A stretch of 64,000 nucleotides of DNA from a virus (lineage: Duplodnaviria > Caudoviricetes). Position numbers and translations under genes: made by a program. The notes under the pieces are model-generated. The model did not search any database and had not been told where the DNA came from. It saw only the letters and a program-made list of their open reading frames with translations. Of this stretch, positions 6,275 to 21,120 are shown in pieces; position 1 is the stretch's first letter, and each line of letters begins with the position of its first letter. The stretch spans positions 224 to 64,223 of IMG/VR virus record IMGVR_UViG_3300008262_000201; one strand, 5' to 3'.

Positions 6275-6302
6275 CGTCCTGGGCATGACGTTAAACTGCC
6301 TA
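6275..6302 (+). promoter_or_regulatory. motif B H-type pseudoknot, copy 1
   Basis: CGTC-C-TGGGCA-T-GACG-TTAAAC-TGCCTA. Confidence 0.8.
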
Positions 6303-6324
6303 TTCTACTTACTCATTTAACCCA

Positions 6325-6624
6325 ATGGAAATCAATTCTCCAACACCTCCTTTAGATCTTGTCAATGATTGGATGACACATTGGTATGACGATAACCAAA
6401 CAGATGACACGCAACCGCTGTATATTGCAACTAAAGCTTCAATGTGGGGCGCAATCTGGGGTGCTACCAATGCTTTGGAAACAGCCATCCAAGACACGGC
6501 ACCTGTTCATTGGCGCGTAGCTGGTGGGGCAGAAGATGGCCAACAGGTAGTACGTGTTATTGATTTAATGGAATGGCTTGCACAGTTCCGTAAAGAATAC
6601 GAAGAAAAGATGTCTTGTAATTAA
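6325..6624 (+). CDS. hypothetical protein (TPP..W/WGA family)
   Basis: PTPPLDLVNDW...ASMWGA resembles the paralogs at 9799 and 10438. Confidence 0.65.
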   Translation: MEINSPTPPLDLVNDWMTHWYDDNQTDDTQPLYIATKASMWGAIWGATNALETAIQDTAPVHWRVAGGAEDGQQVVRVIDLMEWLAQFRKEYEEKMSCN

Positions 6625-6629
6625 TCAAC

Positions 6630-6657
6630 CGTCCTGGACATGACGCTAAACTGTCCA
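6630..6657 (+). promoter_or_regulatory. motif B pseudoknot, copy 2
   Basis: CGTC-C-TGGACA-T-GACG-CTAAAC-TGTCCA. Confidence 0.85.
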
Positions 6658-6679
6658 TTCCACTTACCTACACTACACC

Positions 6680-8419
6680 ATGCAATTCGCTCTGCCTTCC
6701 AATCTTCAGACTGAACTCTTGGCTTATGATCCAAAGCTCAAGGCTTTGGCTAAGCAAGCCAACAAACCAGAAGCCAAGAAACCGACGTATCCACTTGGCA
6801 AGATTCCTTGCTTGATACCAACACACATTGTGCGTGAAGCCGATCAGCAAGATGCAATTGCTCAGATCAATCAGCGTCCAGCACCACAGCGTTATCAAGT
6901 CTTTACTACACCTGTAGATGTAGCAACACCACAGGCTAGGCTCAAGGTCATTGCCATCCTGTATCACTACGAACAGGTGTGGTATGCAGCATGGTTACCT
7001 TCTAAGCAAGAGAAGGATCAGTATGTGTACGGTCATGCGTATGCATTCAAGAACACATCAGCTACACAGAAGACTGCACCAAATTGGATATGGAATAGCA
7101 AAGATGATTGCGTTGTCCACGACATTGGTCGTGGCTCACAACTCTTTGTCTACACCAATACAGCAACCATAGAAGATATCCGCGAAAAAGATTACGATAG
7201 CTGGCGTAGTTATCCATGGCGAGCAGGTAACCTTTACTGCCAGAAGGGTTATACAATTCGTGATACTGTTGTTAATGAATTTGATAACAGCCTGCGGGAA
7301 AATCTCCCAACATGGGAAGATTCCCGTGGATTGTTTGATCGCATACGCTGCAAGAATATCTTTGATGCAGCAAACATACCGTCAATGATGTCAAAGCATC
7401 TTGATGAAACTCAAGGCTTGACTGTTGATAACTTCATTGCTGCTTCACTTGCATTCAAAGAAGAACACGGCTATAGCTCATTAACGTATTCTGTTGTCAC
7501 AAAGATTCAGCACATTGTTACTAAACCTGCCATCAAGAAACTATTGCAAGCAGAGTTAAACCGTAGCATTGATGCATATAATGATCCCAATAACAAACAC
7601 CAGCAACCTATTAGGCAAGGCTTTGCAACTTTTGTGCAGATCCTTAACTCAATCGAGTGGATTGATTCCATCTGGCCAGACTGCCCTATTGATTACTATC
7701 AGACTTATTTCAAAGAACTTAAGTATCTTCGCTTGACTGAAGTGCGTCTACGCAGTGGGGCTACACAAGAGCCTTGTTTAATCGACTGGTTACGTGAGCA
7801 CATGCCTATTGCATCACTGTTTACAATCATGCGTAAGTACTTGGACAAACAACTTACTGAATACAATGGTCGCTGGGTTGACAGCGATGTTGGGTACCAG
7901 CGTCAACGCTTTGGTGAACTCAACGATACATTCTCCATGATGCTTAAGATCCTTCATGTTGGTAATACATTGGAGCCACCGAAGCGTTGGCGTCTGACCG
8001 AGTTCCATGACTACGTACAATCCGAAGCATGGAAGATCCAGAATCCAAAGGAGTCCCTACGTCAAGATCTATTTCCTGAACCCATCAAAGTCACACGTCT
8101 TGATAGGGTATGGACATTCTTTCAGCCTGTTGACACACATCAACTATCCATGTGGGGGCAAGCCGTACGCAACTGCGTTGGCTCTGCATCCCACTATGCG
8201 GATGACATCAAGAAACGTAAGCACTTCATTGTGTTATGTATGATTGATAACAAGCCCACCTTCACAATTCAATTGGTTGTGGACCAGGGTATGATGTCAG
8301 TCAAGCAGATTGCTGGCGTTGGCAATCGCAGTCTTGACTCAATAGAACGCAACGATTACACGGAAGCCTTCCGTGAGGTCTTGCAATTGCGTGAATCTGA
8401 GCTAAGCTCTAAGAGCTGA
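6680..8419 (+). CDS. PcfJ-like domain protein
   Basis: C-terminal HD..P....L..WG....NCVG..Y......FTI......QI.G..N pattern. Confidence 0.75.
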   Translation: MQFALPSNLQTELLAYDPKLKALAKQANKPEAKKPTYPLGKIPCLIPTHIVREADQQDAIAQINQRPAPQRYQVFTTPVDVATPQARLKVIAILYHYEQVWYAAWLPSKQEKDQYVYGHAYAFKNTSATQKTAPNWIWNSKDDCVVHDIGRGSQLFVYTNTATIEDIREKDYDSWRSYPWRAGNLYCQKGYTIRDTVVNEFDNSLRENLPTWEDSRGLFDRIRCKNIFDAANIPSMMSKHLDETQGLTVDNFIAASLAFKEEHGYSSLTYSVVTKIQHIVTKPAIKKLLQAELNRSIDAYNDPNNKHQQPIRQGFATFVQILNSIEWIDSIWPDCPIDYYQTYFKELKYLRLTEVRLRSGATQEPCLIDWLREHMPIASLFTIMRKYLDKQLTEYNGRWVDSDVGYQRQRFGELNDTFSMMLKILHVGNTLEPPKRWRLTEFHDYVQSEAWKIQNPKESLRQDLFPEPIKVTRLDRVWTFFQPVDTHQLSMWGQAVRNCVGSASHYADDIKKRKHFIVLCMIDNKPTFTIQLVVDQGMMSVKQIAGVGNRSLDSIERNDYTEAFREVLQLRESELSSKS

Positions 8420-8468
8420 AGCCACAGCAGGGGCATCCTATCCTCGTAAATGGGATGCCTCTTTACCT

Positions 8469-8678
8469 ATGGACTACACCGATGACCAACTACTTGCCAT
8501 GGCCATGGCCAACATTGGTGAGTACATTACGGACAACTCACCGCAGTACATCTTGATTGAAGAAGATCCTCGCAATGAGGATGACTACGATAGCTGGACT
8601 TACGGAATGGAAGTCCTGCCTCAAGATCACACTTGGCAGTCAGATTCAATTGACGTAAGCCCAAGTGAGGCCGACTAG
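8469..8678 (+). CDS. hypothetical acidic protein
   Basis: 69-aa ORF; its 3' end overlaps motif A copy 9 and the tRNA 5' end. Confidence 0.5.
   Translation: MDYTDDQLLAMAMANIGEYITDNSPQYILIEEDPRNEDDYDSWTYGMEVLPQDHTWQSDSIDVSPSEAD
8630..8667 (+). repeat. motif A copy 9 (directly before tRNA-Leu)
   Basis: CACTTGG-CAG-[TCAG ATTCAA TTGA]-CG-TAAGC-CCAAGTG. Confidence 0.65.
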
Positions 8679-8744
8679 CCCAACGGCAGAGGCAAGCGAC
8701 TTAAAATCGCTACAGTCCCGGTTCGAATCCGGGGTCGGCTACCA
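8669..8744 (+). tRNA. trnL: tRNA-Leu(TAA) with a short variable loop
   Basis: Acceptor GGCCGAC/GTCGGCT, anticodon arm AGCGA-CTTAAAA-TCGCT, T arm CCCGG-TTCGAAT-CCGGG, encoded ACCA. Confidence 0.92.
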
Positions 8745-8762
8745 ACTCAACACACTACACCA

Positions 8763-9122
8763 ATGGACATCATTCGTTCGATCAAGTGCCTTATTCCTGA
8801 GTTCCATGCCTTCAGTGCTGAGGACAGGGGCTATCACGTTGGTGCTACCTGGACTGACGACCAGGGGTTGCGTGACTATCACAACGTTGAACTCAAGTAC
8901 ACACGCAACTCAGAACGTCTAGCGCTCCAAGGCAAGCAGCAGCCTGATGGCAGTTGGCTTTACATTGAACCCAATGGTCGTTGCCATGTCATGTCAGCAG
9001 AGCGTGCTGCTCACTTCATGGCCCAGGCACAGGCACAAGCTCAGATCCTGGAACAAATGTTACAGAACATGAACACAGATGGAGGCGATGGAGTGGTAGA
9101 CACCACTGCGATAACTGTGTAA
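8763..9122 (+). CDS. hypothetical protein
   Basis: 119-aa ATG ORF after the tRNA. Confidence 0.65.
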   Translation: MDIIRSIKCLIPEFHAFSAEDRGYHVGATWTDDQGLRDYHNVELKYTRNSERLALQGKQQPDGSWLYIEPNGRCHVMSAERAAHFMAQAQAQAQILEQMLQNMNTDGGDGVVDTTAITV

Positions 9123-9174
9123 GATCATCTAGCCAAGGACTACTCAGCCCCTGCGTAAGCGGGGGCCTTCCTTC

Positions 9175-9495
9175 ATGACAAACGATTCTATTGATCTTGA
9201 CCTTGTTGACCAAACCATTGCACTGATACCAGAGCAAGCCTGGACTCAAGTGAGACAAGCAATTATTACAGCCTTAGTTGATAACATGCCTGGCTTTGCA
9301 CTTGAGAAGTTGACAGGTACTTATGATGGCTTCGATCGTGCAGAAGAGATTCTGTATGACTACTATCAACTTCCTGCTTTAAAACAAGATCTTATTGTTG
9401 ATGCATTCAGTATCATGGGTGCATTCAATTGCCTCGAACTACTTAGCTCATTGAATCTTACTGAAGATGAATTGCAGACAATGCAACAGCAGTAA
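9175..9495 (+). CDS. hypothetical protein
   Basis: 106-aa ORF. Confidence 0.65.
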   Translation: MTNDSIDLDLVDQTIALIPEQAWTQVRQAIITALVDNMPGFALEKLTGTYDGFDRAEEILYDYYQLPALKQDLIVDAFSIMGAFNCLELLSSLNLTEDELQTMQQQ

Positions 9496-9802
9496 CACAC
9501 GCGTTACTTGTACTGAACATCTGGGACCTGATGTAACCAAACGCTATTGTCGTTGTCTTGATTGTGGTTGCAAGTTCCGTACTGTTGAACGGTACGAAGT
9601 TGCTAAACCAATTCCATTAAAAGCCTACAAACCTATTGGTACCAGGAATGGAAACTCTTTCTTGACTGACAATGATGTGTTGATGATTCGTCATCTACAT
9701 CAGAAAGGATTGAGCAATGGTCAGATAGCAATACGCTATGACACTGCTCGCAGTACAATCTCACGTATTGTCAACTACAAAACTTACACCAACATCAAAT
9801 GA
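9467..9802 (+). CDS. zinc-ribbon (NrdR/Ogr-like) plus HTH regulator
   Basis: CxxC...TRV..T...RYCRCLDCGCKFRTVE, plus C-terminal GLSNGQIAIRYDTARSTISRI. Confidence 0.75.
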   Translation: MNCRQCNSSNTRVTCTEHLGPDVTKRYCRCLDCGCKFRTVERYEVAKPIPLKAYKPIGTRNGNSFLTDNDVLMIRHLHQKGLSNGQIAIRYDTARSTISRIVNYKTYTNIK

Positions 9803-10128
9803 CACAACAACACCCGATCACCCCACTACCGAAGCTATTCCAGAGGTGGTCAGAACAGTTTGAAGCAGGGAGACCACTCTATGCAATGTTTGAAGATATT
9901 TACAGAGCAGGAGCAGACGCTGAGCTGGAGGCGTGCTGTGAGTGGTTACAGGATCCTGATCTCAATGTAGACACTTACAAACTCCGCGCCGCACGCCGTC
10001 CTCAGCCGCCGAGCCTCAAGGAACAGGCGCTTGCTCTTGTCGAGCAGCACGAAGATGGTTGGCGACCGTCGCCCAAAGATTGGGACACCCTTCGTCGTGC
10101 CCTTGAACAACTTCCCGACAACAACTAA
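9799..10128 (+). CDS. hypothetical protein, paralog of 10438
   Basis: HPITP...GAD.ELEACCEW...RRP..PSLK.QAL...RRALEQL. Confidence 0.75.
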   Translation: MTQQHPITPLPKLFQRWSEQFEAGRPLYAMFEDIYRAGADAELEACCEWLQDPDLNVDTYKLRAARRPQPPSLKEQALALVEQHEDGWRPSPKDWDTLRRALEQLPDNN

Positions 10129-10136
10129 TTACTACA

Positions 10137-10436
10137 ATGACAACCAAGCGACAATTTGATTACAAGATTGGTGACCGTGTTGCTGAACGTCCCAAACCCC
10201 ATGGGATCTACACAAACAACCAACAAACAAGAGAACGTATCTCTCAATACAGGAGCCAGCGGTATGGTGAAGTAGTTGGTATCAACTACAAGAACAACTC
10301 ACGTGGTGCCACCCAAAAGTTCTTGCTTGTTCGTTGGGATCATTTACCTAGCCCAACTGAACATGCCACTGCACGCATCTGTCCTGTGTCAGCGCTAGAA
10401 CGTCTGACCAAAGAAGTCCTTGTCCCTGGCGAATGA
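10137..10436 (+). CDS. hypothetical protein (SH3-like)
   Basis: YKIGDRV...YGEVVG...LVRWD. Confidence 0.65.
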   Translation: MTTKRQFDYKIGDRVAERPKPHGIYTNNQQTRERISQYRSQRYGEVVGINYKNNSRGATQKFLLVRWDHLPSPTEHATARICPVSALERLTKEVLVPGE

Positions 10437-10437
10437 C

Positions 10438-10785
10438 ATGACACAAGAACACCCAATCACCCCACCGCCTGAACTGGTGCAGCAGTGGGTAGACGCTTAC
10501 TTTGGCGGTGGAATCTCCCATGTAGACCTCGCTGCCCAAGCTGCCCAATGGGGCGCGGACCAGGAGCTGGAGGCGTGCTGTGAGTGGATTGACTCCTTTC
10601 AAAACAAATTTGTTTATGCCCATGATCTTCGTCTTGTCCGCCGCCCCAAGGCGCCGAGCTTGAAGAAACAGGCACTGGAAGCTTTGACATCTGCACCTGG
10701 GCCTGACTATCCCATTGTGATGACAATGCTTAACGCTGATCAACATGCCCTAATCCGCCGCGCCTTAGAGCAACTCGATGACTGA
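10438..10785 (+). CDS. hypothetical protein, paralog of 9799
   Basis: MTQEHPITPPPELVQQW...WGADQELEACCEW. Confidence 0.75.
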   Translation: MTQEHPITPPPELVQQWVDAYFGGGISHVDLAAQAAQWGADQELEACCEWIDSFQNKFVYAHDLRLVRRPKAPSLKKQALEALTSAPGPDYPIVMTMLNADQHALIRRALEQLDD

Positions 10786-10987
10786 AAACCAAATCCACTT
10801 TATACGTGGTTGCTGTACAACAATCCTTGCCTTTGCAGCTACTGGTTTAATCGCTGCAATCTTTTTGTCACCTGATGAACCTAAGAACAACTCTAAGTTT
10901 GAAGTCATTGATCAGTACGAAGGTTGTTCAGTAATCCGTTACACTGATCCCACATCTCGCTGGCATTACTTCCTTAAGTGCTCATGA
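10778..10987 (+). CDS. small membrane-anchored protein
   Basis: N-terminal TM segment, then FEVIDQYEGCSVIRY. Confidence 0.65.
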   Translation: MTENQIHFIRGCCTTILAFAATGLIAAIFLSPDEPKNNSKFEVIDQYEGCSVIRYTDPTSRWHYFLKCS

Positions 10988-11625
10988 ACGTACAACTTGT
11001 TTGGGCAACGCCCAATGCAGAGGAAATGATCACGCGCATGGCACGCGTCTCTGCACCAAAGAACCAAGACAACATGGATACCGCACCCAAGTTGTTGCGT
11101 TATCTGATTAAACATCAGCACTGGTCACCGTACGAGATGGCCAATCTCTGTGTTGAAATCAACACAACACGTGCAATCTCACCGCAGATCCTTAGGCATC
11201 GTTCCTTCTCATTCCAGGAATTCAGTCAACGTTACGCAGATACCAGTGAACTTGGCTCAGCTATTATTCCTCATCTGCGTCGACAAGACTTTAAGAATCG
11301 TCAAAACAGTATTGATGATTTGTCTGCTGATGCAATCAGTGGTTATTACCGCCGCATTAGCAAGTTGTATGAAGACGCTGAACATCTCTACCGCGAGATG
11401 GTTAGCAGCGGCGTTGCAAAAGAATGTGCCAGGTCCATCCTGCCACTTTCAACACAGACCCGTCTCTTCATGAATGGCACTATCAGATCTTGGATCCATT
11501 ATCTACAACTGAGGACTCATGAATCAACCCAACTCGAACACAGAGAAATTGCAGAAACAATTAAAGGAATCTTCTGCAAAGAATTCCCAATCATCGGAGA
11601 GGCTGTGTTCTCAACAGATCAATGA
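10984..11625 (+). CDS. thyX: FAD-dependent thymidylate synthase ThyX
   Basis: HWSPYE, QILRHRSFSFQEFSQRY (RHRX7S motif), AKECAR..LP, TQLEHR. Confidence 0.96.
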   Translation: MNVQLVWATPNAEEMITRMARVSAPKNQDNMDTAPKLLRYLIKHQHWSPYEMANLCVEINTTRAISPQILRHRSFSFQEFSQRYADTSELGSAIIPHLRRQDFKNRQNSIDDLSADAISGYYRRISKLYEDAEHLYREMVSSGVAKECARSILPLSTQTRLFMNGTIRSWIHYLQLRTHESTQLEHREIAETIKGIFCKEFPIIGEAVFSTDQ

Positions 11626-11760
11626 TCTGATTGAGAGGTATAAAGAACCAGAGCAAGCACGCCAGTTCCTTATGGGGGCTGGCATCATTGATGAGAATGG
11701 AGACCTCATGCCTCCATATCAAAACACCTCAACCTAATTAACTATTACCACTAATCACCT

Positions 11761-12027
11761 ATGACACGACAACAACTTGTTAATTGTTCCACTGTTACTC
11801 AAACAGTATTCGATGCATTCTGGCCACTTGGTATGTATCCAGATGATATGGATACTAGCAATCTTGCTTTAGCCTTGCGAGCTGTTGCGGATCAAGTCGT
11901 GCCGGATCAACAAGAGCCAGCAAGCTCGCCGCACATGGGAAGTTTTATCTCTCATGTAAAGTGGAGCCAGTGCCAGACTATTCGCATCCAACTCCTTGCC
12001 ATTGCTGACGAGCTTGAAGCCCAGTAG
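11761..12027 (+). CDS. hypothetical protein
   Basis: ALRAVADQVVP...LLAIADELEAQ family; flanked by motif C. Confidence 0.7.
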   Translation: MTRQQLVNCSTVTQTVFDAFWPLGMYPDDMDTSNLALALRAVADQVVPDQQEPASSPHMGSFISHVKWSQCQTIRIQLLAIADELEAQ

Positions 12028-12036
12028 TCACCTTTA

Positions 12037-12153
12037 CTAAAAGGTTGCAGCACTTTGCTTCTTCAGTTCTGTGACGGCATGCTTGGACTCCACATCCTTG
12101 CGTGCCAGCTTTTTCTTTTTGTCCACCAGGTAAACGATCAGTGCCTTGTTCAT
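12037..12153 (-). CDS. 38-aa basic peptide (not in ORF track)
   Basis: MNKALIVYLVDKRKKLARKDVESKHAVTELKKQSAATF with a GGAGG SD upstream. Confidence 0.5.
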   Translation of the reverse strand: MNKALIVYLVDKKKKLARKDVESKHAVTELKKQSAATF

Positions 12154-12364
12154 TTGATTTGTCCTCCAGTGACGTAAGGAAAGTAGCAGATGTTACGGTA
12201 GGTCAGGCAAAGCCATGGACGGTGTGCTAAGTTCCACCATGCCTTGTCTGTCTTAGCCTGTTATTGTTTCCAGGGTGGGTAGCCTACGTTGTTCTCTCTG
12301 GTCTTGCTAAATGTACAGAAGATAAAAATATGTATGTACTTTTAAAACAACTTGCAGACTAACA

Positions 12365-12849: not shown

Positions 12850-12872
12850 CTAGCCATTACCACTAATCCTCC

Positions 12873-13265
12873 ATGAACAAAAGACAAATTGAAATGCTCC
12901 GCTTCATCGTTAAACAAGAGATTGAAACTGCTGGCATTGATGGCATGGAGCATGGCGCTTGGGGCTGGGCCGAAAAACAGTTAGACAAAAATTGGGAAGA
13001 ATTCCAGCAATCTTTCACGGATCCCAACGAAATGGAGTACAAATCTTTTGACTCAATTAAAGAACTTTTTGAGGATCTACATGCGGATGAAAAAATCTAT
13101 CTAAAAAGGCTTCTTTTAAAAGAAAAAAAAGAAAAGGTCAGTGAGGATGAAAACGAGCGCCGTTTCAAAGCCTGCCTTGAAGAAATTCGCAAACTTACCC
13201 ACGCAGATCTTGTCAATCTAATGGGCAAAGAGTGGTTTGAAGACTATCGCCGCCAGTTCCAATAG
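12873..13265 (+). CDS. hypothetical protein
   Basis: 130-aa ORF flanked by motif C. Confidence 0.65.
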   Translation: MNKRQIEMLRFIVKQEIETAGIDGMEHGAWGWAEKQLDKNWEEFQQSFTDPNEMEYKSFDSIKELFEDLHADEKIYLKRLLLKEKKEKVSEDENERRFKACLEEIRKLTHADLVNLMGKEWFEDYRRQFQ

Positions 13266-13284
13266 TCGCTTCTCCTAATCACCC

Positions 13285-13443
13285 ATGAAATCACTCGACG
13301 ACTACACAACGCTCGGCGCAATAGTCTTGGTTTTGATTGTCTTTATTGCTCTTGGTATCTGGTGGCTGCCTCAAAAATGGCAGGGCTGCCAGAAACTGTA
13401 TGACAAAGTGCCTGCCCAGGTTGTTTGTTTCCTGAGCGAGTAA
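13285..13443 (+). CDS. small membrane protein (not in ORF track)
   Basis: MKSLDDYTTLGAIVLVLIVFIALGIWWLPQKW...; flanked by motif C. Confidence 0.6.
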   Translation: MKSLDDYTTLGAIVLVLIVFIALGIWWLPQKWQGCQKLYDKVPAQVVCFLSE

Positions 13444-13475
13444 GCACCTTCACTAATACTCCCGAACGGGAAAAT

Positions 13476-13503
13476 GGACCTGAGCACGTCCTAAAACTAC
13501 TCA
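13476..13503 (+). promoter_or_regulatory. motif B pseudoknot, copy 3
   Basis: GGAC-C-TGAGCA-C-GTCC-TAAAAC-TACTCA; stem 1 compensated. Confidence 0.7.
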
Positions 13504-13538
13504 TCAGTTTTCCTTATCATTCAACTCAACTCAACACC

Positions 13539-14297
13539 ATGAAACTCCTCAAGTTTTCCACAGGTAACGGCAAGCTCAAGAATCGTCTGATCTTCAACAT
13601 CCCAGCGGGCTATGCATGTCCACACGCTGGTGTCTGTAAGACCATGGCTGATCGTGTCACTGGCAAGATCATGGACCTACCTCAGTTCACTGGCACAGAA
13701 GCAGATGAGTATCGTTGCTTTGCTGCTATGGCAGAGACCAGGCCAACCGTACGTGAAGCTCGTTGGCACAACTGGGATCTGCTGCGTGAGACCATGCATA
13801 TGAATGGGAATCAAGCCATGCTTTTGCGTGATCTGATCGACCTATCACTCTCAATGCAGCCATTGAAGAAGCTGCTTCGGATCCATGAGTCAGGCGATTT
13901 CTGGACTGAGAACTACATGCGTGCTTGGATCATGGTCGCACAAGAGCGTCCTAAGCAAACCTTCTACGCATACACCAAGTCGCTTGGAATGTGGCTGAAC
14001 CTCAAGGACATCATCCCATCTAACTTTTATCTCACTGCGTCGCAAGGTGGAACACTCGACTACCTGATCCCCAAGTACCCTGAAGTGTTCCAGCGCATTG
14101 CTCATGTGGTCTACACAGAAGAGGAAGCGCAAGAGCGTGGGCTAGAGATCGATCATGACGACAGCCATTGCCTTGGTGACAAGCCGTTCGCACTCTTGGT
14201 TCATGGTTCCCAGAGGGCTGGATCTGATGCCATGAAAGCCTTAACGCAACGGAAGAAAGAAGGTAAGTTTGTAGGTTACGGTAAGTCACAAAGGTAG
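13539..14297 (+). CDS. GP88-like protein
   Basis: GNGKL..F.IPAG.ACP.AG.C...CFA, RIHESGDF, FYAYTKS; start moved to ATG 13539. Confidence 0.8.
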   Translation: MKLLKFSTGNGKLKNRLIFNIPAGYACPHAGVCKTMADRVTGKIMDLPQFTGTEADEYRCFAAMAETRPTVREARWHNWDLLRETMHMNGNQAMLLRDLIDLSLSMQPLKKLLRIHESGDFWTENYMRAWIMVAQERPKQTFYAYTKSLGMWLNLKDIIPSNFYLTASQGGTLDYLIPKYPEVFQRIAHVVYTEEEAQERGLEIDHDDSHCLGDKPFALLVHGSQRAGSDAMKALTQRKKEGKFVGYGKSQR

Positions 14298-14344
14298 TTA
14301 TCACGATAAGACCTGGTACTATATGCCTGGTCTTATCCTGTTCA

Positions 14345-14578
14345 ATGGCTTACATCATTAGTACGTTGGTGGATGGTGTGCCACACGCCATCCATGCCAA
14401 TAGTTCCGACTCCAAGTTTGAACTGTTAGCTTTGGATTCTGCTAGTTCACTTAGTAGAATTTACTCCCATCCTTACCGGGCTGGTGCTTATCAAGTTCTA
14501 AGTTGGATCCTGGACAATGAACCCACACTCTCCTGTTATGAGCTCCAGGTTTCCGATGAAGCCCGGTTCCAAAAATGA
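14345..14578 (+). CDS. hypothetical protein
   Basis: 77-aa ORF after an inverted repeat containing TACTAT. Confidence 0.55.
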   Translation: MAYIISTLVDGVPHAIHANSSDSKFELLALDSASSLSRIYSHPYRAGAYQVLSWILDNEPTLSCYELQVSDEARFQK

Positions 14579-16379
14579 ATCTTGGTTAGTCTTTGATATT
14601 GAAACCAATGGCCTCTACGATAAAGTCACGAAAGTTTTTTGTATCGTTATCTACGATATCAACCGAGAAGAAACTTTTGCTTATGGGCCTGATCGCATTG
14701 ATGATGCTCTTGCTCATCTGGCAACCGGTGATGTACTCATTGGTCACAATGTGATCTTCTACGACGTACCGGTTCTGCAAAAACTACATTCATTCAACTG
14801 CAAAACACGCATCCTTGACACACTCATCTGCACACGACTCATTTGGCCCAAAGAAAAACTCTACGACCTTGACGTACAACTCTATCCGGAAGTTCCGAAG
14901 AACTACCGCGGGATGGCCGGTCTTAAAGCCTGGGGTTACCGCCTCTCCGATAACAAGATTGAGTTCAAAGATTTCTCGGAGTACTCAGAAGAAATGCTTG
15001 TCTATTGCAAGCAAGACGTCTCGGTTACTTCAAAACTTTGGAGGCATATCGCCAACCAAGGCTATCCAGAACAAGCTCTCAAACTTGAACACGACTTTGC
15101 TCTTGCCATTAATAAACAAATTAGAGCAGGTGTTTCTTTTGATGTGGATGCAGCTATTGATCTTGTGGATAATCTCCGAGCAAGAGAAGCACAGCTTGAA
15201 ACGGAACTAAAAGAAATCTTTCCGCCAATCGAACATCGTAATTGGTTTACTCCTAAGGTCAACAATAAAAATCGTGGCTATGTCAAAGGAGTACCTTTTG
15301 AAAAAATCCATTACGAAGAATTCAATCCTGGATCTCGTGATCAAATTGCTGATCGACTCAAGGCTAAGTACGGATGGCAACCAGAAAAGACAACTGAAAA
15401 AGGAAATCCAATCCTTAATGATGAAGTGTTAGAGGCATTGCCTTATCCAGAAGCCAAGCCTCTGGCAGAATACATGCTCATCAAGAAACGCCTTGGTCAA
15501 ATTGCAGATGGCAACAACGCTTGGCTCAAGCTGGTTAATAATGACAGCAGTCGTATGCACGGTGACGTTGTTACTAACGGCTGCGTCACTGGTCGTTGTG
15601 CTCACCGATACCCAAATATGGGTCAGGTTCCAGCAGGCTATTCGCCATACGGCAAAGAATGTCGGTCATTATTTCATGCACCACAAGGATGGGACATGAT
15701 TGGTATCGATGCCAAAGCATTGGAGCTACGATGTCTTGCTGGTTACCTTGCCATCTATGACGGTGGTGAGTATGCACGTGTGGTCACGGATCCAACAATT
15801 GACATTCACGTGTACAACCAAGAGCGTTTTGGTGTTGCTACCAGGGACATCAGTAAGCGTTTACTGTATGCCGTGTTGTATGGCGCTGGTCACCTTAAGG
15901 CTGGCAGCATTGTGGATCCGAATGAAAAAGATGAAGAAGTTCTGCGTAAACTAGGAAGAACTGCAATTAATTCATTCATGGCTGAGGTGCCAGCCTTGAA
16001 AGAACTTAAGGAACGTATTGAATCTCAGATTGCAAACAATGATTGTCTCATTGGATTAGATCGCCGTATTCTTTATTGCCGTTCGGCATTCAAAGGATTG
16101 AATGTTTTATTACAATCAGCAGGCGCAATCCTCATGAAGCAAGTTGTTATTAACATTCATGACAACATTGAGTCTGCCCTCAGTCTGCCCCATGGGGCAG
16201 AGTGGGAACAAGTCTTGATGGTTCATGACGAAGTGCAACTGGTTTGTAGTCCCAAATACACTGAACAGATCAGAGCCCAAGCATTGGCAGCTTTTCCACA
16301 AGCACAGCAATTCTTTGGATTCCTCTGTGACATTGAGGGAGATTCTCGTGTAGGATCCAACTGGAGCCAAACGCACTGA
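14556..16379 (+). CDS. polA: DNA polymerase family A (T7-like, with 3'-5' exonuclease)
   Basis: FDIETNG (ExoI), GHN..YD, YC.QDV, DAKALELR (motif A), KRLLYAVLYG (motif B), VHDE (motif C); start uncertain (14517 or 14556). Confidence 0.97.
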   Translation: MKPGSKNESWLVFDIETNGLYDKVTKVFCIVIYDINREETFAYGPDRIDDALAHLATGDVLIGHNVIFYDVPVLQKLHSFNCKTRILDTLICTRLIWPKEKLYDLDVQLYPEVPKNYRGMAGLKAWGYRLSDNKIEFKDFSEYSEEMLVYCKQDVSVTSKLWRHIANQGYPEQALKLEHDFALAINKQIRAGVSFDVDAAIDLVDNLRAREAQLETELKEIFPPIEHRNWFTPKVNNKNRGYVKGVPFEKIHYEEFNPGSRDQIADRLKAKYGWQPEKTTEKGNPILNDEVLEALPYPEAKPLAEYMLIKKRLGQIADGNNAWLKLVNNDSSRMHGDVVTNGCVTGRCAHRYPNMGQVPAGYSPYGKECRSLFHAPQGWDMIGIDAKALELRCLAGYLAIYDGGEYARVVTDPTIDIHVYNQERFGVATRDISKRLLYAVLYGAGHLKAGSIVDPNEKDEEVLRKLGRTAINSFMAEVPALKELKERIESQIANNDCLIGLDRRILYCRSAFKGLNVLLQSAGAILMKQVVINIHDNIESALSLPHGAEWEQVLMVHDEVQLVCSPKYTEQIRAQALAAFPQAQQFFGFLCDIEGDSRVGSNWSQTH

Positions 16380-16385
16380 GCTCTT

Positions 16386-16413
16386 CGTCCTAAGTATGAC
16401 GCTAAACTACTTA
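16386..16413 (+). promoter_or_regulatory. motif B pseudoknot, copy 4 (upstream of SSB)
   Basis: CGTC-C-TAAGTA-T-GACG-CTAAAC-TACTTA. Confidence 0.85.
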
Positions 16414-16432
16414 TCACCTACTGTTTGAACAC

Positions 16433-17233
16433 ATGAACTTTGTTACAGTTTGCGCTCAACTCAACGACACACCTCGCGAAGTTTATACTTCTGCCACATC
16501 AAGCAACTATGTTGCAGAGGTAATGCTTCCTCCTGTAGGAAAAAATAAATCTGCAACATCTCTTGCGCTTCATGTTTACGGCAAGGCTGCTGAGAAATTC
16601 AGGACCCTTGATCGTGGTGCTCGTTTGTATGTACACGGTTCAAAGATCCGTTACGATATTGATGCCAAGGCATACTCACTGCACGGCGGTGTTATTGCAG
16701 TTGTTAATGATTCGTTTCCAATTTTTAACGATGTGATTCTTACTGGTCGTTGCATTAAAGACATCGATCAAGAAGATGCACGTGCGTTTAAGACAACACC
16801 AGATGGTTTGATGATTGCCAATCAAACCATCTCAGTTAATACTGGTCGGAACCAAGGAGACTTGTTCAACTTCTATGCAATTAATAGCAAGGATGACAAG
16901 TTAAATAACGCTGAGTTGATGGTCAACTTTACACGGAAAGGAACTGGACTTACCATTCGTGGCCGTCTTGTTACCGATGCATGGACTGATAAAGAAACAC
17001 AACAACGCCGAACACTGACCAAGATCCAGCTTGTGCAGATGACCTTGGCGCCAAAGCCTGGCATCAACGAGCCAAAGCCCGTAGCGTCCCAGACGACGGT
17101 TGCTTCTTCTGATAATGTTGCTACACTGTGGGGCGGCAAGACTGCCGAAGATTCCTGGAGCCAAGGTCTGCCTGATCTCCCTGGTCAGTACGGACCAGCT
17201 CCTGAGCCTACTCCTGAATTCATTCCGTTCTGA
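16433..17233 (+). CDS. ssb: single-stranded DNA-binding protein (tandem OB folds)
   Basis: Second domain N.VIL.GR...KG....I.GRL....W.DKET; C-terminal ..IPF tail. Confidence 0.8.
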   Translation: MNFVTVCAQLNDTPREVYTSATSSNYVAEVMLPPVGKNKSATSLALHVYGKAAEKFRTLDRGARLYVHGSKIRYDIDAKAYSLHGGVIAVVNDSFPIFNDVILTGRCIKDIDQEDARAFKTTPDGLMIANQTISVNTGRNQGDLFNFYAINSKDDKLNNAELMVNFTRKGTGLTIRGRLVTDAWTDKETQQRRTLTKIQLVQMTLAPKPGINEPKPVASQTTVASSDNVATLWGGKTAEDSWSQGLPDLPGQYGPAPEPTPEFIPF

Positions 17234-17236
17234 CTC

Positions 17237-17467
17237 ATGCCTCTTCAACTTGATTTACAAGAACAAGATCTTCTTTCTTTAGAAGACGCCATTGCGTACG
17301 AATTTTTTATGGAGAGTGCATACAACATTATGCACAGTGCTAATGAAAAGGATTTAGACATTGCTGAACAAGTTTTAAAACTTGCTCAAGCTTCTTATCT
17401 GATTGCAAATATTTTTTGCGAAGTACGTTTAATTAACTCACAACAAACCAATGACACCGACGCATGA
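17237..17467 (+). CDS. hypothetical protein
   Basis: 76-aa ORF. Confidence 0.55.
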   Translation: MPLQLDLQEQDLLSLEDAIAYEFFMESAYNIMHSANEKDLDIAEQVLKLAQASYLIANIFCEVRLINSQQTNDTDA

Positions 17468-17690
17468 TCAGTTCACTCTCCTCTATGAGGATGAGCACAC
17501 TAAACTTCTGTATGAATTCAAGGCTCTTGTTGCTGACGATGTAATCAATCACCTTGTGGATTTTCTCAAGGGTTGTGGCTACATGGAAAGCAGTATCTTT
17601 GAATGCATGAAAGAATCTTCTGAGGCATATTTCGATTCATTACGTACTCAGCAGTACGTAATGAAATGGGACAAGCCTGAAGCAGAATGA
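17451..17690 (+). CDS. conserved cyanophage hypothetical protein
   Basis: EF.A....DV......FLKGCGY motif. Confidence 0.65.
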   Translation: MTPTHDQFTLLYEDEHTKLLYEFKALVADDVINHLVDFLKGCGYMESSIFECMKESSEAYFDSLRTQQYVMKWDKPEAE

Positions 17691-17695
17691 TGATT

Positions 17696-17723
17696 CGTCC
17701 TGAGCATGACGTTAAACTGCTTA
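17696..17723 (+). promoter_or_regulatory. motif B pseudoknot, copy 5
   Basis: CGTC-C-TGAGCA-T-GACG-TTAAAC-TGCTTA. Confidence 0.85.
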
Positions 17724-17743
17724 CTCCTGACTACGAAACAACC

Positions 17744-18760
17744 ATGACTTCTTCGATGACCACCAAGAAAACTTCTGCGCTTGCATCCAGGGGACTTGAT
17801 TCCTTTAAGCTTTTCCAAGCCAAAGAGTTTGTTTCTGGCTACCAGAATCTTGTAACAATTCAACCACTAAACAAATCAAAAGTACGTGGTTGGTTTGTCC
17901 GCAAGTCTGATCTTGATACCTGCGGATGGACTGCTACTGAAGATGAGTTTGCCAATGGTTCCGTCATCTGGAACTATAAGCAGACCTTTGGTATGGCACC
18001 TAATACCTCCATTGAAGAGGGACTTAACTTCACGGAACCTCGCGTCCAGATCTTGTTGCGTTCTCCACTCATGGTGGAAGAGACAACTGGGATGCGTCAA
18101 ACGATTGGCACCTTTGAAGATCCAGAGGTCAAAGCCATGTTTGAAAATGACAAGATTGCATCCGACCTTGCTAACAGCAAGGGCGAGATGTACAAGCGTA
18201 AGTACAGTGTACGTACAAAGTACCTTGTATATATCCTGACCCAGGACAACAAGCGTGCTCATAAGATCCCCATGGTGCTAACACTCAAGGGTCTTAACGG
18301 AACCGATGTTTCCGACAAGGTTAAGCTGTACGAAAAGGAAATGTCTAAATGCCTGAGCAAGGCACTGGACTCTGAGGTACCGCTGGCATTCAACGAGAAG
18401 TTTTACGCCACTACGGTGTTTACTCCCGTCCTTGCCAACGAGATGCGTGGTGCTAACAACGTAGAGATTTGCGCCATCGAATCTTTTGACATCCCTGACT
18501 ACAGCTCCCAAGAGGAAGCGGTTGCATCATTGGGCCGCCTTTCGATTCCTGATGAAGATCGTGAATCGACTTGGAAGTACCAAGGGATGTTTGAAGACTA
18601 TATAAATCAACATTCTCGCCAAGATGCGCAGCGTCTTGGTGGTGCTTACGGAATCAAAGATGGCGTACAGATTCTTCCCGTCTCACGCATCGCAGATGCA
18701 GTTGATGTGAAAGCATTGCCTGCACGCAATGAACTAACCGGAGAAGATCTTAGCCTTTGA
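17744..18760 (+). CDS. DUF5895-like protein (possible DNA annealing/recombination)
   Basis: YLVYIL..DNK..H.IP..LTLKG motif; start moved to after the pseudoknot. Confidence 0.6.
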   Translation: MTSSMTTKKTSALASRGLDSFKLFQAKEFVSGYQNLVTIQPLNKSKVRGWFVRKSDLDTCGWTATEDEFANGSVIWNYKQTFGMAPNTSIEEGLNFTEPRVQILLRSPLMVEETTGMRQTIGTFEDPEVKAMFENDKIASDLANSKGEMYKRKYSVRTKYLVYILTQDNKRAHKIPMVLTLKGLNGTDVSDKVKLYEKEMSKCLSKALDSEVPLAFNEKFYATTVFTPVLANEMRGANNVEICAIESFDIPDYSSQEEAVASLGRLSIPDEDRESTWKYQGMFEDYINQHSRQDAQRLGGAYGIKDGVQILPVSRIADAVDVKALPARNELTGEDLSL

Positions 18761-18989
18761 GGCGGTTCAAGATGTCATGGTCAACTTGATTACTCATCAA
18801 GTCCATGGCATCCTTTACTAATCCTTTAATAGCAACTTGACGCATCGTGGCGATCTTCGTTAGTAAGGTCGCCATTTCTTTTAGCTCACTCATTGAACTG
18901 CATTCGTTAATGGAACGTATCATCTTCTCTTGCCAGAAGGCTTCTTCTGGACCCATTTCAAATTGCAACATGGGATTCAATTGTTTCAA
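18750..18989 (-). CDS. nblA: NblA-like phycobilisome degradation protein
   Basis: EM.PEE.F......R.I.......ELKE....L......RQ..IKGL matches the NblA helix-loop-helix pattern. Confidence 0.55.
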   Translation of the reverse strand: MKQLNPMLQFEMGPEEAFWQEKMIRSINECSSMSELKEMATLLTKIATMRQVAIKGLVKDAMDLMSNQVDHDILNRLKG

Positions 18990-19049
18990 AGTATTCTAAC
19001 TACAACGTAAACTTAATTAAACCTTTTGTTTATGTTAGGGATTCAACAC

Positions 19050-19238
19050 ATGAAACCAGAAGACAAAGCTGCTCTTACCGTCGGTGCTCAAACTGCATTA
19101 GTGACAGCGGCTGCTGCCATCCTTCTGCCTAACCCAGTCTCCTGGGCGGCTGCTATAGTGGCAACGTACCGCATGGCCAAGCGTGCTCGCATCCAATCTC
19201 TGATTGACCAAGGGCAAGCCAAGTACTGGAGGGGGTAA
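19050..19238 (+). CDS. small membrane protein
   Basis: Hydrophobic ALVTAAAAILLPNPVSWAAAIVA. Confidence 0.5.
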   Translation: MKPEDKAALTVGAQTALVTAAAAILLPNPVSWAAAIVATYRMAKRARIQSLIDQGQAKYWRG

Positions 19239-19274
19239 CCACCTGGTACAACACACCAACTCAATTCAAATCAA

Positions 19275-20210
19275 ATGCAAACACAAGTTGAGCTTAATGC
19301 AGCGCAAGCTGCAATCTATACACGCACGAATCTTTCACGTGCCTTTCAAGACTTTGATGACACCGACATTGGTGGCATCTATTTGCGAGGCGATGATTGT
19401 GTTGTGGTGCGTCGCGATGGTAGCGAGCAAGCTTACAACAGGGAACTAATCAAGACTTCCTTTAACAACTACACCCACCGTCTTAAAGATTTCTTTTCCT
19501 ATCTTGGTCCCAATTATCGTGGCCCTAGTGTATGGCACAACAATGCTTACATTCTTTTTAAGGGCTGGAACTACTCACACGCACTCGGACACCTGAGCTC
19601 CCATGCAAAACTACAAGCACACTGGGCTGACAAATTTATACATGTATCAAACACCGACAAAGTCTTGCACCTCCTCCAGTCCGATCAAACGGATATTGGA
19701 CATTTGGTTGCGCCAGACGGATTGCGGCTTCCGAATCGGCCCATTGACATTGACGGTGACATGGAAGCTGACGACTCCGAGCCTGTCATGGGTGAACCTT
19801 GGTGTTCGTGTGGGTCGTATCAGCGTCAGCTCAGCAACGTATCTGACTTTGCGTCCGAGATCCAAGGATTCAAACCCTGGTGCATCCACCTGACTTGGTT
19901 CAACAAGTACAGGGAACTGCTGTGCAAGCGCACCGAAGCACGGAATGCCAGTCCCAGTGGCACACCTGAGAAGTGTGTTGCCTGGTGGTATGCACCACCC
20001 GCTGATCACATCAGTGATGGACGCTTTGTATTGTTGTATACAAACTCAGGTGCACAAGCTCCGCTCAGTCATTGGCGTACCTACAAGCCCAAGGATATCT
20101 TTACCCAGCATGATGCATGGGATCTGTTTTTCAATATGATGGAGGCTGGCTACGTTCCATTCCCTGGTACTGCATTGCCACAACTCAAGTCTGCTGTCAA
20201 AAAACAATGA
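19275..20210 (+). CDS. SWIM zinc-finger protein
   Basis: WCSCGSY...WCIHL (CxC-Xn-CxH). Confidence 0.7.
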   Translation: MQTQVELNAAQAAIYTRTNLSRAFQDFDDTDIGGIYLRGDDCVVVRRDGSEQAYNRELIKTSFNNYTHRLKDFFSYLGPNYRGPSVWHNNAYILFKGWNYSHALGHLSSHAKLQAHWADKFIHVSNTDKVLHLLQSDQTDIGHLVAPDGLRLPNRPIDIDGDMEADDSEPVMGEPWCSCGSYQRQLSNVSDFASEIQGFKPWCIHLTWFNKYRELLCKRTEARNASPSGTPEKCVAWWYAPPADHISDGRFVLLYTNSGAQAPLSHWRTYKPKDIFTQHDAWDLFFNMMEAGYVPFPGTALPQLKSAVKKQ

Positions 20211-20521
20211 CATTTCAAATCGATAATGGCGTTGTTTACCTAGGTACTCAATGCCCCAGTACAATACTCAAAATTGAGTCAAAAGATTCAATGATTGACC
20301 CTGAGCTACGCAAGTATGCAACAGAGTTAGTCAACAAACCTTTTCCAAAACAAATGATGCTATCCAACGGCAAGTACTCACTACACCTTGAACTTGATGA
20401 AGACACTTACTGGGGTCTTGTTAAGCTAGGTGCAGAAATCAAAACTGATTGTGAAACTTATGCAGAACACATCCTCATTGGGCATATTGAATCCGGACTC
20501 GATCAACAAGCTACAGATTGA
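20207..20521 (+). CDS. hypothetical protein
   Basis: ATG 20207 overlaps the upstream stop. Confidence 0.5.
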   Translation: MTFQIDNGVVYLGTQCPSTILKIESKDSMIDPELRKYATELVNKPFPKQMMLSNGKYSLHLELDEDTYWGLVKLGAEIKTDCETYAEHILIGHIESGLDQQATD

Positions 20522-20664
20522 ATGCATTGAAGAAGAGGATGGTTCCATGACCATTCATATCGAATGGGATGAAACAGATCCCGATCTTCAATGGTGGACA
20601 GATCTTGGCGCAGAAGGCCAAGAAACCTTTATGATTAATGCACTCCAACAAGCTTGTGATTGTT

Positions 20665-21051
20665 ATGTCGATTGACACCTACGGCCTTAGCTCTGAGCAG
20701 TACACCGAGTTCTTTCATAAGAACATTCGTGCTGCAGCCAAGCTTTACTTGGATACCTGCAACATTTTGAGCAGCGAAGGGGTCGGCAATGTCGACTTCA
20801 AAACTGTCTCAGAGATGTACCAAGAAGCTGTGTACACTACCAATGATGATTGCCGTCGTTACCAAAAGAGTAACAACCCCGAGGCTCTCAAAGATACTGA
20901 TCTGCTAGGTATCTATCCTTCTAGAGAAGAGCTGTTGGCTGAGATCCAGGCTGTCAATGCCAAGGTCGAAGCACTGAACGACTACGTTGCTGAGTTAGTT
21001 GCGGTCACCACCAAAGGGCTTACCGGCATTGCTGATCGCCTGGTAGACTAA
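20665..21051 (+). CDS. hypothetical protein
   Basis: MSIDTYG start; C-terminal coiled coil. Confidence 0.6.
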   Translation: MSIDTYGLSSEQYTEFFHKNIRAAAKLYLDTCNILSSEGVGNVDFKTVSEMYQEAVYTTNDDCRRYQKSNNPEALKDTDLLGIYPSREELLAEIQAVNAKVEALNDYVAELVAVTTKGLTGIADRLVD

Positions 21052-21073
21052 ACCCGCCGCCCTGCAGGGACGC

Positions 21074-21101
21074 CGTCCTGGTCAAGACGTAAAACTGACC
21101 A
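21074..21101 (+). promoter_or_regulatory. motif B pseudoknot, copy 6
   Basis: CGTC-C-TGGTCA-A-GACG-TAAAAC-TGACCA. Confidence 0.85.
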
Positions 21102-21120
21102 CCCATCTCAACACCACACC

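Follow-up and report, generated by a model that had tools for sequence, protein, structure and literature searches.

The 64,000-nt stretch analysed here (the window) is nearly all of the 64,223-nt IMG/VR record IMGVR_UViG_3300008262_000201, which is 81% complete. It is the DNA of an S-EIV1-like cyanophage, and its relative, Synechococcus phage S-EIVl, shows 72% identity across the region from the DNA polymerase to the single-stranded DNA-binding protein (SSB). Every gene in the first 28 kb lies on the + strand, and exactly six 28-nt elements occur on this strand with the layout S1(4)-C-S2(6)-N-S1'-YWAAAC-S2', i.e. with two interleaved stems, S1 and S2, as in an H-type pseudoknot. A structural scan of the window that required all four S1 pairs, at least five of the six S2 pairs and AAAC in place returned six matches, all of them on + and not one on -; applied to 200 shuffles that preserve dinucleotides, the same scan gave a mean of 0.58 matches over both strands (maximum 4). 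No seventh copy is present in the whole record.

The six copies, at 6275, 6630, 13476, 16386, 17696 and 21074, had been pointed out with this layout in an initial annotation of the DNA, and all were found again. Equally correct are the switch of S1 from CGTC/GACG to GGAC/GTCC, which occurs at 13476, and the placing of the copies 19-35 nt before start codons (22, 22, 35, 19, 20 and 19 nt to the ATG for copies 1-6, respectively). The S2 pairs that it listed are those of the five copies in which S2 is fully paired (6/6), the 13476 copy (TGAGCA/TACTCA, 5/6 paired) being missing from that list. Pfam confirms PcfJ, GP88, SSB (PF00436), DUF5895 and Sipho_Gp157, as they had been named, and a family A DNA polymerase; the first open reading frame (ORF) behind the 21074 copy codes for 37 aa.

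The leaders between the copies and the start codons contain 5 G in 137 nt (compared to 22% G across the window), lack a Shine-Dalgarno sequence and are predicted to be unstructured, with no second hairpin behind the window copies. Between 5.5 and 22.5 kb, sigma-70-like promoter-like sites are not in excess (17 compared to 26.2 in shuffles) and none coincides with a copy, nor was a + strand terminator found beside a copy in this interval. Since, in addition, all genes of this part lie on the + strand, the copies would be situated inside long polycistronic transcripts, probably early or middle mRNAs of the phage. No RNA polymerase gene was seen among the 20 large ORFs scanned.

Table 1 Copies of the pseudoknot and neighbouring features, in window coordinates
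Feature	Position	Strand	Remarks
Pseudoknot copy 1	6275..6302	+	S1 CGTC/GACG, S2 TGGGCA/TGCCTA; stop codon 6267-6269 ends 5 nt upstream
Leader after copy 1	6303..6324	+	22 nt, no G, no Shine-Dalgarno sequence
99-aa ORF after copy 1	6325-6624	+	ATG start; no Pfam family
Pseudoknot copy 2	6630..6657	+	S2 TGGACA/TGTCCA; stop codon 6622-6624 ends 5 nt upstream
PcfJ-like gene	6680..8419	+	PF14284, 25.4 bits; 22 nt after copy 2
tRNA-Leu(TAA)	8669-8744	+	Rfam and ARAGORN
Short hairpin CCCGAACGGG	directly upstream of copy 3 (13476)
Pseudoknot copy 3	13476..13503	+	S1 variant GGAC/GTCC; S2 TGAGCA/TACTCA, one C.A mismatch
GP88-family gene	13539..14297	+	PF17338, 138.6 bits; 35 nt after copy 3
Pseudoknot copy 4	16386..16413	+	S2 TAAGTA/TACTTA; DNA polymerase stop codon 16377-16379 ends 6 nt upstream
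SSB gene	16433..17233	+	PF00436, OB-fold domain aa 98-203; 19 nt after copy 4
Pseudoknot copy 5	17696..17723	+	S2 TGAGCA/TGCTTA; stop codon 17688-17690 ends 5 nt upstream
DUF5895 gene	17744..18760	+	PF19247; 20 nt after copy 5
Palindrome CCCTGCAGGG	directly upstream of copy 6 (21074)
Pseudoknot copy 6	21074..21101	+	S2 TGGTCA/TGACCA; 22 nt beyond stop codon 21049-21051
37-aa hydrophobic ORF	21121-21234	+	starts 19 nt after copy 6
Sipho_Gp157 gene	21238-21957	+	Pfam; directly behind the 37-aa ORF
tRNA-like match	28384-28454	-	Rfam alone, 42.3 bits

The element folds as an H-type RNA pseudoknot

S-EIVl carries the element on its gene strand. As relatives we used 20 SSB-containing viral contigs (SSB identity 49-99%), and the window together with 18 related loci (397,840 nt) was searched with a sequence-only profile, which cannot reward pairing; it yielded 82 copies, every one on the gene-sense strand. 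Among the 81 full-length copies (54 distinct sequences) 94.4% of the pair cells hold a standard pair, compared to 80.9% in column shuffles (a value reached by 0 of 500), and in the controls in which the partner strand was slid 17-47% are paired. S1 is 100% paired in the 54 distinct sequences, with two pair types at 3-14 and four at 1-16 (CG 40, GC 8, UA 5, AU 1), and compensatory double changes are found at five of the six S2 pairs.

An independent set was obtained with a pattern in which S2 positions 7-10 and 24-28 were unconstrained. Of its 104 matches in viral contigs, 87 form all four inner S2 pairs, and three, two and one of these pairs are formed in 13, 3 and 1 matches, respectively; 32 matches of a related, stricter pattern in GTDB genomes form four in 26 cases, three in 5 and none in 1. 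The 88 distinct sequences of this set have 88.6% of cells paired (74.9% after shuffling, 0/500) and contain 92 double-change cells compared to 33.6 in shuffles. Over 127 distinct sequences, G.U combinations (79) far outnumber A.C combinations (16), which, together with the strong covariation, implies that it is the sense-strand RNA that folds, and not the opposite strand or duplex DNA. The S2 covariation and the fold proposed initially from the window copies are thus borne out by both tests: on the strength of covariation, the element is an H-type RNA pseudoknot in the sense strand, and both helices are real.

The invariant positions are G2, C4, C5, A11, G13, C15 and A19-A21, and U3, A14, C22 and U23 are nearly so. 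In the 127 sequences the pair C4-G13 is present in all 127, G2-C15 is invariant and U3-A14 occurs as U-A in 123 and as A-U in 4; C5 and A11 are likewise found in 127/127, and the second loop position is U (114) or C (13), never G. The linker has U (111) or C (16) at position 17, U (109) or A (18) at position 18, A19-A21 in 127/127, C22 in 124 and is followed by U23 in 125, whereas the single nucleotide of loop 2 (L2) varies (U 85, A 22, C 20).

Occurrence in unrelated phages

Copies were gathered on 102 locus-strands, 61 of them S-EIV1-like and 41 other. Clustering of the 2,733 ORFs within 6 kb of copies (BLASTP, 1e-5, on partial loci, so that remote partners could be missed) yielded no ORF cluster joining the 61 S-EIV1-like loci with the 41 other viral-contig loci, except for one GP88-like ORF in a single locus (L092). 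By sequence, the pseudoknot is present in many unrelated phages, the hosts of which are cyanobacteria, Bacillota, actinobacteria, Paracoccus and Vibrio.

Of the 37 SSB ORFs in the relatives of the window virus, 29 begin no more than 60 nt from a copy. Most S-EIV1-like loci have, immediately behind the pseudoknot, a conserved hydrophobic ORF of 37-41 aa whose product begins with MFE(S/T/F); it probably encodes a small membrane protein ahead of the gp157 gene.

Pseudoknot-compliant copies are also carried by 83 Staphylococcus phage records, Lactobacillus phiEF-1.1, Streptococcus Javan271 and the thermophilic phage D6E, in all of which the copy stands between the portal/minor-head genes and the scaffold and major-capsid genes; ahead of scaffold and capsid genes is the usual place in Bacillota phages. 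Two Pfam families, PF06810 and PF14265, are represented among the scaffold genes downstream, and in unrelated phages the element is also found ahead of a UDG/exonuclease gene. Further compliant copies occur in Mycobacterium phage Labelle, Arthrobacter phage Molivia, Paracoccus phage ParMal1, the T4-like cyanophage S-H35, Nostoc phage NMeng1 and a Vibrio phage lineage of 27 records (S1 TCTC/GAGA). In Molivia (L180 1501-1611) the copy lies 6 nt past the SSB stop codon and 2-3 nt before a tRNA, and in NMeng1 (L237 ~1199-1306) it stands ahead of a tRNA-like gene; the gap to the tRNA or tRNA-like gene is 2-5 nt in these two unrelated phages. Bacillus phage Edson and Microcystis phage Mwe-JY13 were matched by blastn (sequence match only), and a match in Pseudomonas Psa21 was discarded as chance.

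The GTDB genomes with the canonical variant are mostly those of Bacillota; further occurrences are in Phytoplasma, Anaeroplasmataceae, Saccharibacteria, Anaerolineales and a small number of other metagenome-assembled genomes (MAGs). The sole gammaproteobacterial GTDB match is unpaired and looks like chance, and one S2 variant searched against 5,426 E. coli genomes gave 0 matches at E<=10.

In Bacillota phages the element often comes directly behind a terminator-like hairpin, and some copies have a hairpin 7-9 nt downstream. Direct tandem copies exist at L070 362-420 and L149 1375-1429 (with one shared base in the latter). In two loci (L143 203-250, L030 5926-5978) there is complementarity between the bases just 3' of the pseudoknot (ACTCATTCG and CTTTC) and the scaffold gene's Shine-Dalgarno region, and in Enterococcus and L030-type prophages these bases enclose a small hairpin; the complementary stretch may form an extra regulatory helix. 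In a Bradymonadales MAG (L145 ~1750-1900) the pseudoknot sequence lies between identical 37-nt direct repeats (GTTTCAATCC...GGAC) and looks like a CRISPR spacer that was taken from a phage at exactly the pseudoknot motif.

Spacing to stop and start codons

Among 135 distinct S-EIV1-like contexts a stop triplet is found exactly 5 nt upstream of the element in 63 and 6 nt upstream in 18. When only stops closing an ORF of at least 40 codons are considered (79 contexts), 30 are at 5 nt, 11 at 6 nt and 2 closer, and the next ATG follows at 19-22 nt in 52 of these 79 contexts, a distance below 18 nt being found in only three (all 11 nt). In other lineages, spacers of 5, 6 and 7 nt occur in 7, 8 and 9 of 71 contexts, no stop is closer than 4 nt, 14 of the 66 contexts with a long upstream ORF have the stop at 5-7 nt, and the distance from the copy to the start codon ranges from 0 to ~240 nt. 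A terminating ribosome does not have to open a structure whose first base is at about +12 from its P site, and ~15-20 nt ahead of the AUG are required by a 30S subunit. Given this geometry, stop codons at least 5 nt upstream and AUG codons at least 18-19 nt downstream fit an element that is always folded and is packed as closely as both ribosome footprints permit.

The conserved core coincides with that of coremin

Coremin (xrRNA_C) is an Xrn1-resistant RNA motif found in beny-, cucumo- and further RNA viruses of plants and fungi; a 'Watson-Crick coremin' variant, xrRNA_WCC, has also been described (PMC6546385, PMC10520033, PMC10321173). The coremin 20-mer is GUCCGAAGACGUUAAACUAC (PMC10520033). 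Its core, GUCC ... GACGUUAAACU, coincides with the phage consensus, and the sole difference in the overlay is the size of the loop in between. The phage invariants that match are G2 U3 C4 C5 ... G13 A14 C15 (G16 U17 U18) A19 A20 A21 C22 U23, and the 3-bp G-U-C/G-A-C hairpin 1 of coremin with its closing C-G pair has its counterpart in the 127 distinct phage sequences.

The natural variation of the phage element parallels the published coremin mutagenesis (PMC6546385): (i) the loop-closing C-G pair of coremin is sequence-specific and cannot be flipped, and C4-G13 is the invariant phage pair; (ii) the second stem pair is replaceable provided that it is paired, as in the U-A and A-U versions of 3-14; (iii) the fourth stem pair is dispensable, and the phage pair 1-16 covaries freely; (iv) the first loop base must be a pyrimidine, which in the phages is C5; (v) U13U14 can be changed to AA, while U14A and a C at the spacer's 5' end occur naturally, and the same two variants are seen at phage positions 17/18; (vi) A15-A17, C18 and U19 are essential, and they correspond to the (nearly) invariant A19-A21, C22 and U23. 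In this comparison the Molivia copy has 3 extra nt. In both motifs an adenine precedes the last loop nucleotide and hairpin 1 has 3-4 bp, and tandem copies, seen here at two loci, are also found in some plant viruses.

In the coremin spacer, GUUAAACUAC, the match extends over phage G16-U23, while the equivalents of A20 and C21 are variable and paired in the phages. This is where the two motifs part: the phage 3' strand pairs back into loop 1 through a covarying 6-bp Watson-Crick S2, which takes up six of the eight loop nucleotides. Coremin itself has been modelled as a BWYV-like (beet western yellows virus) H-type pseudoknot, with nucleotide 5 as a 1-nt loop 1 (L1) and loop nucleotides 6-8 paired with spacer nucleotides 18-20, a loop-to-spacer contact that is only hypothesised (PMC10321173). 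The phage element has this modelled architecture with S2 lengthened to six canonical pairs: S1 (N-GUC/GAC-N) resembles coremin hairpin 1, C5 is the 1-nt L1 and YWAAAC the conserved A-rich linker. With loops of up to 8 nt, the 8-nt loop from GRV among them, resistance to Xrn1 is retained (PMC10520033). Coremin is situated in the 3' untranslated regions of RNA viruses and meets Xrn1, whereas the phage element is situated in the mRNA leaders of dsDNA phages and would meet RNase J.

When the classical tetraloop form was scanned for, 49 stretches were found to contain 51 matches. The exact classical 18-mer accounts for 48 of them, each followed by AC where the sequence continues and all on contigs of at most 10.3 kb; the other three have other loops and look like chance, two of them being on contigs above 100 kb. 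The confinement of the classical form to small, RNA-virus-like contigs implies that the phage form is a distinct variant. From these analogies, we consider it an even chance that the element is a phage version of the coremin-type exoribonuclease-resistant RNA (xrRNA).

Comparison with other known families

A search of Rfam and viromes had been suggested as a check in the initial annotation; it showed the element to be widespread in viral contigs, the window copies having no Rfam family. Gathering-threshold scans with Rfam 15 of the window and 19 diverse loci (149,628 nt) detected only tRNAs, and additional scans of two regions at E<=10 gave no relevant match other than GP20-b below its cut-off. 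In the window record there is no GP20-b match at E<=10. GP20-b (RF03003), which lies upstream of phage GP20/scaffold genes, is regarded as a candidate cis-regulatory motif and has no assigned function (PMC10690425); it is not mentioned in the main text of PMC5737381 and is described only in the supplement of that paper. An Enterococcus copy of our element, upstream of a PF06810 scaffold gene, spans together with the hairpin that follows it the whole 62-nt GP20-b model, at 19.2 bits compared to a cut-off of 36.2, and the GuC...GgCgUAAAA stretch is in the same place; the one true member found (L175, 37.5 bits) has a poor S1.

The luteovirus frameshifters of BWYV and potato leafroll virus (PLRV), used for comparison with coremin in PMC10321173, share with the phage element a compact H-type fold, a short L1 and an A-rich loop across S1, but they follow a slippery site, whereas the phage element occupies intergenic leaders and has an S1 of 4 bp and an S2 of 6 bp. 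The xrRNAs of flaviviruses and dianthoviruses share the proposed function, a mechanical halt of 5'->3' exonucleases; they are larger, ring-forming folds of ~44-70 nt without sequence similarity to the phage element.

The operator of T2/T4 gene 32 and the pistol ribozyme, to which the copies had been likened initially, are analogies only. In the former, a pseudoknot with a 1-nt L1 over a 6-7 bp S2 presumably stands at the 5' edge of the unstructured leader of the SSB gene; a gene 32-type operator is specific to a gp32-type SSB gene, whereas the phage element accompanies a PF00436 SSB gene and many non-SSB genes, in phages without gp32, and its core is that of coremin. Pistol consists of the stems P1, P2 and P3, and its pseudoknot joins the loop of P1 to the P2-P3 junction (PMC4604425); P2 and P3 are absent here and the two regions scanned have no Pistol match at E<=10. 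Nor does anything tie the element to preQ1-I: the two regions searched at E<=10 match no riboswitch family of Rfam, and the downstream genes have no relation to queuosine.

A putative roadblock to 5'->3' decay

We propose, with a probability of about 0.5, that the element acts as a coremin-type directional roadblock in polycistronic mRNA, stalling 5'->3' decay (probably by RNase J) and leaving a stable, translatable downstream message. The conserved core matches that of coremin, an RNA that stops RNA-degrading enzymes, so that the element probably shields the downstream messages from decay. Xrn1 is stalled by coremin, which also obstructs scanning ribosomes and promotes -1 frameshifting (PMC6546385, PMC10520033, PMC10321173). 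Bacillus subtilis RNase J1 is halted in vitro by an unrelated flavivirus xrRNA (PMC5760640), an observation in favour of a general block of mechanical nature. A directional block fits the distribution of conservation, since the conserved half (S1 and the linker) is met first from the 5' side and S2 needs only pairing. Of the two functions suggested in the initial annotation, the compact block to RNase J has therefore gained real support from the coremin core and from the halting of RNase J1 by an xrRNA, and it fares better than the SSB-sensing regulon.

In the proposed mechanism S1 and S2 would stack coaxially, the minor groove of S1 being occupied by A19-A21 and the groove of S2 by C5, as in the luteovirus-type arrangement. 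RNase J, a 5'->3' exoribonuclease of cyanobacteria, Bacillota and actinobacteria, or perhaps a scanning enzyme that depends on the 5' end or otherwise arrives from that side, would degrade the transcript from an upstream entry or cleavage site and stall at the S1/linker triplex, and the product would be a stable mRNA that begins just before the pseudoknot and keeps the short G-poor leader for ribosome binding. Genes whose products are needed in bulk (SSB here; scaffold and capsid elsewhere) may in this way be insulated from decay initiated upstream. In Bacillota phages, one cut between the terminator-like hairpin and the element could yield an upstream RNA whose 3' end is protected and a downstream RNA protected at its 5' end.

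Several points weigh against this proposal. A compliant copy occurs in a Vibrio phage lineage, the host of which is not known to possess RNase J. Some S2 helices are weak, such as TAAGTA/TACTTA at 16386, and the tight stop-codon spacing is mostly a trait of the S-EIV1 lineage. The coremin loop consensus, YGAD/YGNNAD, is not found in the 8-nt phage loop (C-UGRGCA-U), to which the Y and the A fit and from which the G is absent. Coremin A20 is essential (PMC6546385), but the equivalent phage position, 24, varies and pairs, and coremin depends on a further hairpin (hp2, at least 4 bp) immediately behind the spacer, which the window copies do not have. Pseudoknots of BWYV and other frameshifters did not resist Xrn1 (PMC10321173); therefore an H-type fold alone does not make an xrRNA. 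Finally, given that coremin affects ribosomes and frameshifting too, the target in the phages could be the ribosome and not a nuclease.

The ends of RNA contigs at copies (e.g. 16386) were considered as transcript evidence and rejected. In a comparison over 13000-22000, in which the RNA runs are assembled, small-share contigs, DNA-like runs break as well (13475) and chimeric joints occur (17720 to 13531); the breaks at copies are repeat-induced assembly breaks and hence no evidence either way.

Alternative explanations

The competing reading that deserves most attention, although we regard it as rather unlikely, directs the element at the ribosome, whether as an insulator of cistrons, a block to sliding or re-initiating ribosomes, a tether of post-termination subunits or a 30S-platform enhancer for leaders without a Shine-Dalgarno sequence. 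The sharp spacing in the S-EIV1-like contexts (stops exactly 5 nt upstream in 63/135, starts 19-22 nt downstream in 52/79), the G-poor window leaders and the ability of coremin to block scanning ribosomes and to stimulate -1 frameshifting (PMC10520033, PMC10321173) speak for it, but outside the S-EIV1 lineage the start distance of 0 to ~240 nt shows no such regularity and many of the genes have a Shine-Dalgarno sequence of their own. Several copies follow terminator-like hairpins and not stop codons, two directly precede tRNA genes, and upstream of the window copies no slippery heptamers were seen. A frameshift or readthrough of the upstream gene was discarded for the same lack of slippery heptamers; in our reading, the extension would not be conserved either. 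An SSB-nucleated translational regulon, in which SSB would bind the pseudoknot, spread over the leader and repress replication genes as in T4 gene 32, had been suggested in the initial annotation and appears improbable. A copy does precede the SSB gene in most relatives (29/37 within 60 nt), and the pseudoknot followed by an unstructured leader resembles the gene 32 operator. This regulon is poorly supported because the element is carried by unrelated genes and phages, the copy in Molivia is downstream of the SSB gene and the SSB is of the PF00436 type and not gp32: phages sharing no protein (apart from the GP88-like ORF mentioned above) have the element before scaffold genes of two families, a UDG/exonuclease gene or tRNAs. 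Moreover, leaders of 19-22 nt are short for cooperative coating, and the coremin fold already accounts for the invariant nucleotides.

That the invariant nucleotides gather at the helical junction and the loops would also suit a preQ1-I-like aptamer of a ligand-sensing riboswitch timing many phage genes, and the complementarity between bases 3' of the pseudoknot and the downstream Shine-Dalgarno region in Enterococcus/L030-type prophages would, as we read it, suit it as well. This is very improbable: no Rfam riboswitch family matched the two regions searched at E<=10, the downstream genes are tied to no one metabolite, nor to queuosine, up to six copies are present per genome and the single-nucleotide L2 is variable. 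Extremely improbable is a promoter or operator acting at the DNA level, with TAAACT as the -10 box, a hexamer which it does resemble, or the 5' strand of S2 as the -35 box. BPROM promoters are annotated over the element in the S. aureus phages B166 and phiJB (predictions only), but the two interleaved helices covary with a G.U excess, the 82 copies in 397,840 nt are all on the sense strand, no conserved partner hexamer exists at a fixed spacing in the window, and promoter-like sites there are fewer than expected (17 and 26.2). We assign no greater chance to a pistol-related self-cleaving ribozyme or to a recognition site of a processing endonuclease. Pistol, which is also associated with phages and Firmicutes (PMC4604425), does resemble the element in having a short hairpin that engages in a pseudoknot through its loop and is followed by an A-rich linker; against this, neither P2, P3 nor a conserved cleavage strand follows the element, Pistol gave no match at E<=10 in the two regions, and 28 nt is far below the size of any known natural ribozyme.

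Other repeats in the genome

The earliest part of the + strand operon of the window virus contains a second repeated element in six copies (1418-1475, 1722-1771, 3431-3480, 3750-3793, 4608-4650 and 4995-5037), consisting of CTGGGCATCC, a variable hairpin top and GGTGTAAGTCCCA. According to RNAalifold, it would form two stems, the outer one being UGGG/CCCA, and a UAAGU bulge of 5 nt. All six copies are ~30 nt ahead of a CA-rich leader and an ATG, and no Rfam match was found; CCTGGGCAT is common to this element and to pseudoknot copy 1. A stretch of ~210 nt is present twice (2954-3163 and 37429-37637, 86% identity, 34.5 kb apart), contains GGTATTCA repeats and may be a regulatory or origin-like region. 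On the - strand, periodic repeats of 78 nt and related lengths (43800-45600) lie within the ORFs 43513-44184 and 44221-46017, next to an ORF (42230-43597) with a Peptidase_S74 chaperone domain; the two repeat-bearing ORFs likely encode repeat-built tail-fibre proteins.

Significance of a putative phage exoribonuclease-resistant RNA

RNA viruses of eukaryotes are known to carry structured RNAs at which 5'->3' exonucleases come to a halt. The papers searched contain no report of a phage or bacterial xrRNA, with the limit that an equivalent motif may sit in the supplementary catalogues of PMC5737381 and PMC10690425 or in the figures and tables of the latter; in the two later coremin papers, PMC10520033 and PMC10321173, no word begins with 'phage' or 'bacteri'. 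We tentatively suggest, at somewhat less than even odds, that the coremin-fold pseudoknot, found in phages of several bacterial phyla and proposed to stop RNase J-type decay, could be the first natural exoribonuclease-resistant RNA of the prokaryotic world.

If this is true, the same minimal fold, by descent or by strict convergence, would defeat unrelated nucleases in bacteria and eukaryotes. The covariation of the phage S2 provides a loop-spacer register (A11-U23, corresponding to coremin A7-U19), which for the plant-virus coremin has been only hypothesised, and hundreds of natural variants would become available toward solving the coremin structure. A widespread unannotated intergenic motif, and probably Rfam GP20-b too, would gain a function, and the differing stabilities of cistrons on one long phage transcript (SSB, scaffold, capsid) would be explained. 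The 28-nt element would also constitute a portable mRNA stabiliser for Gram-positive bacteria and cyanobacteria.

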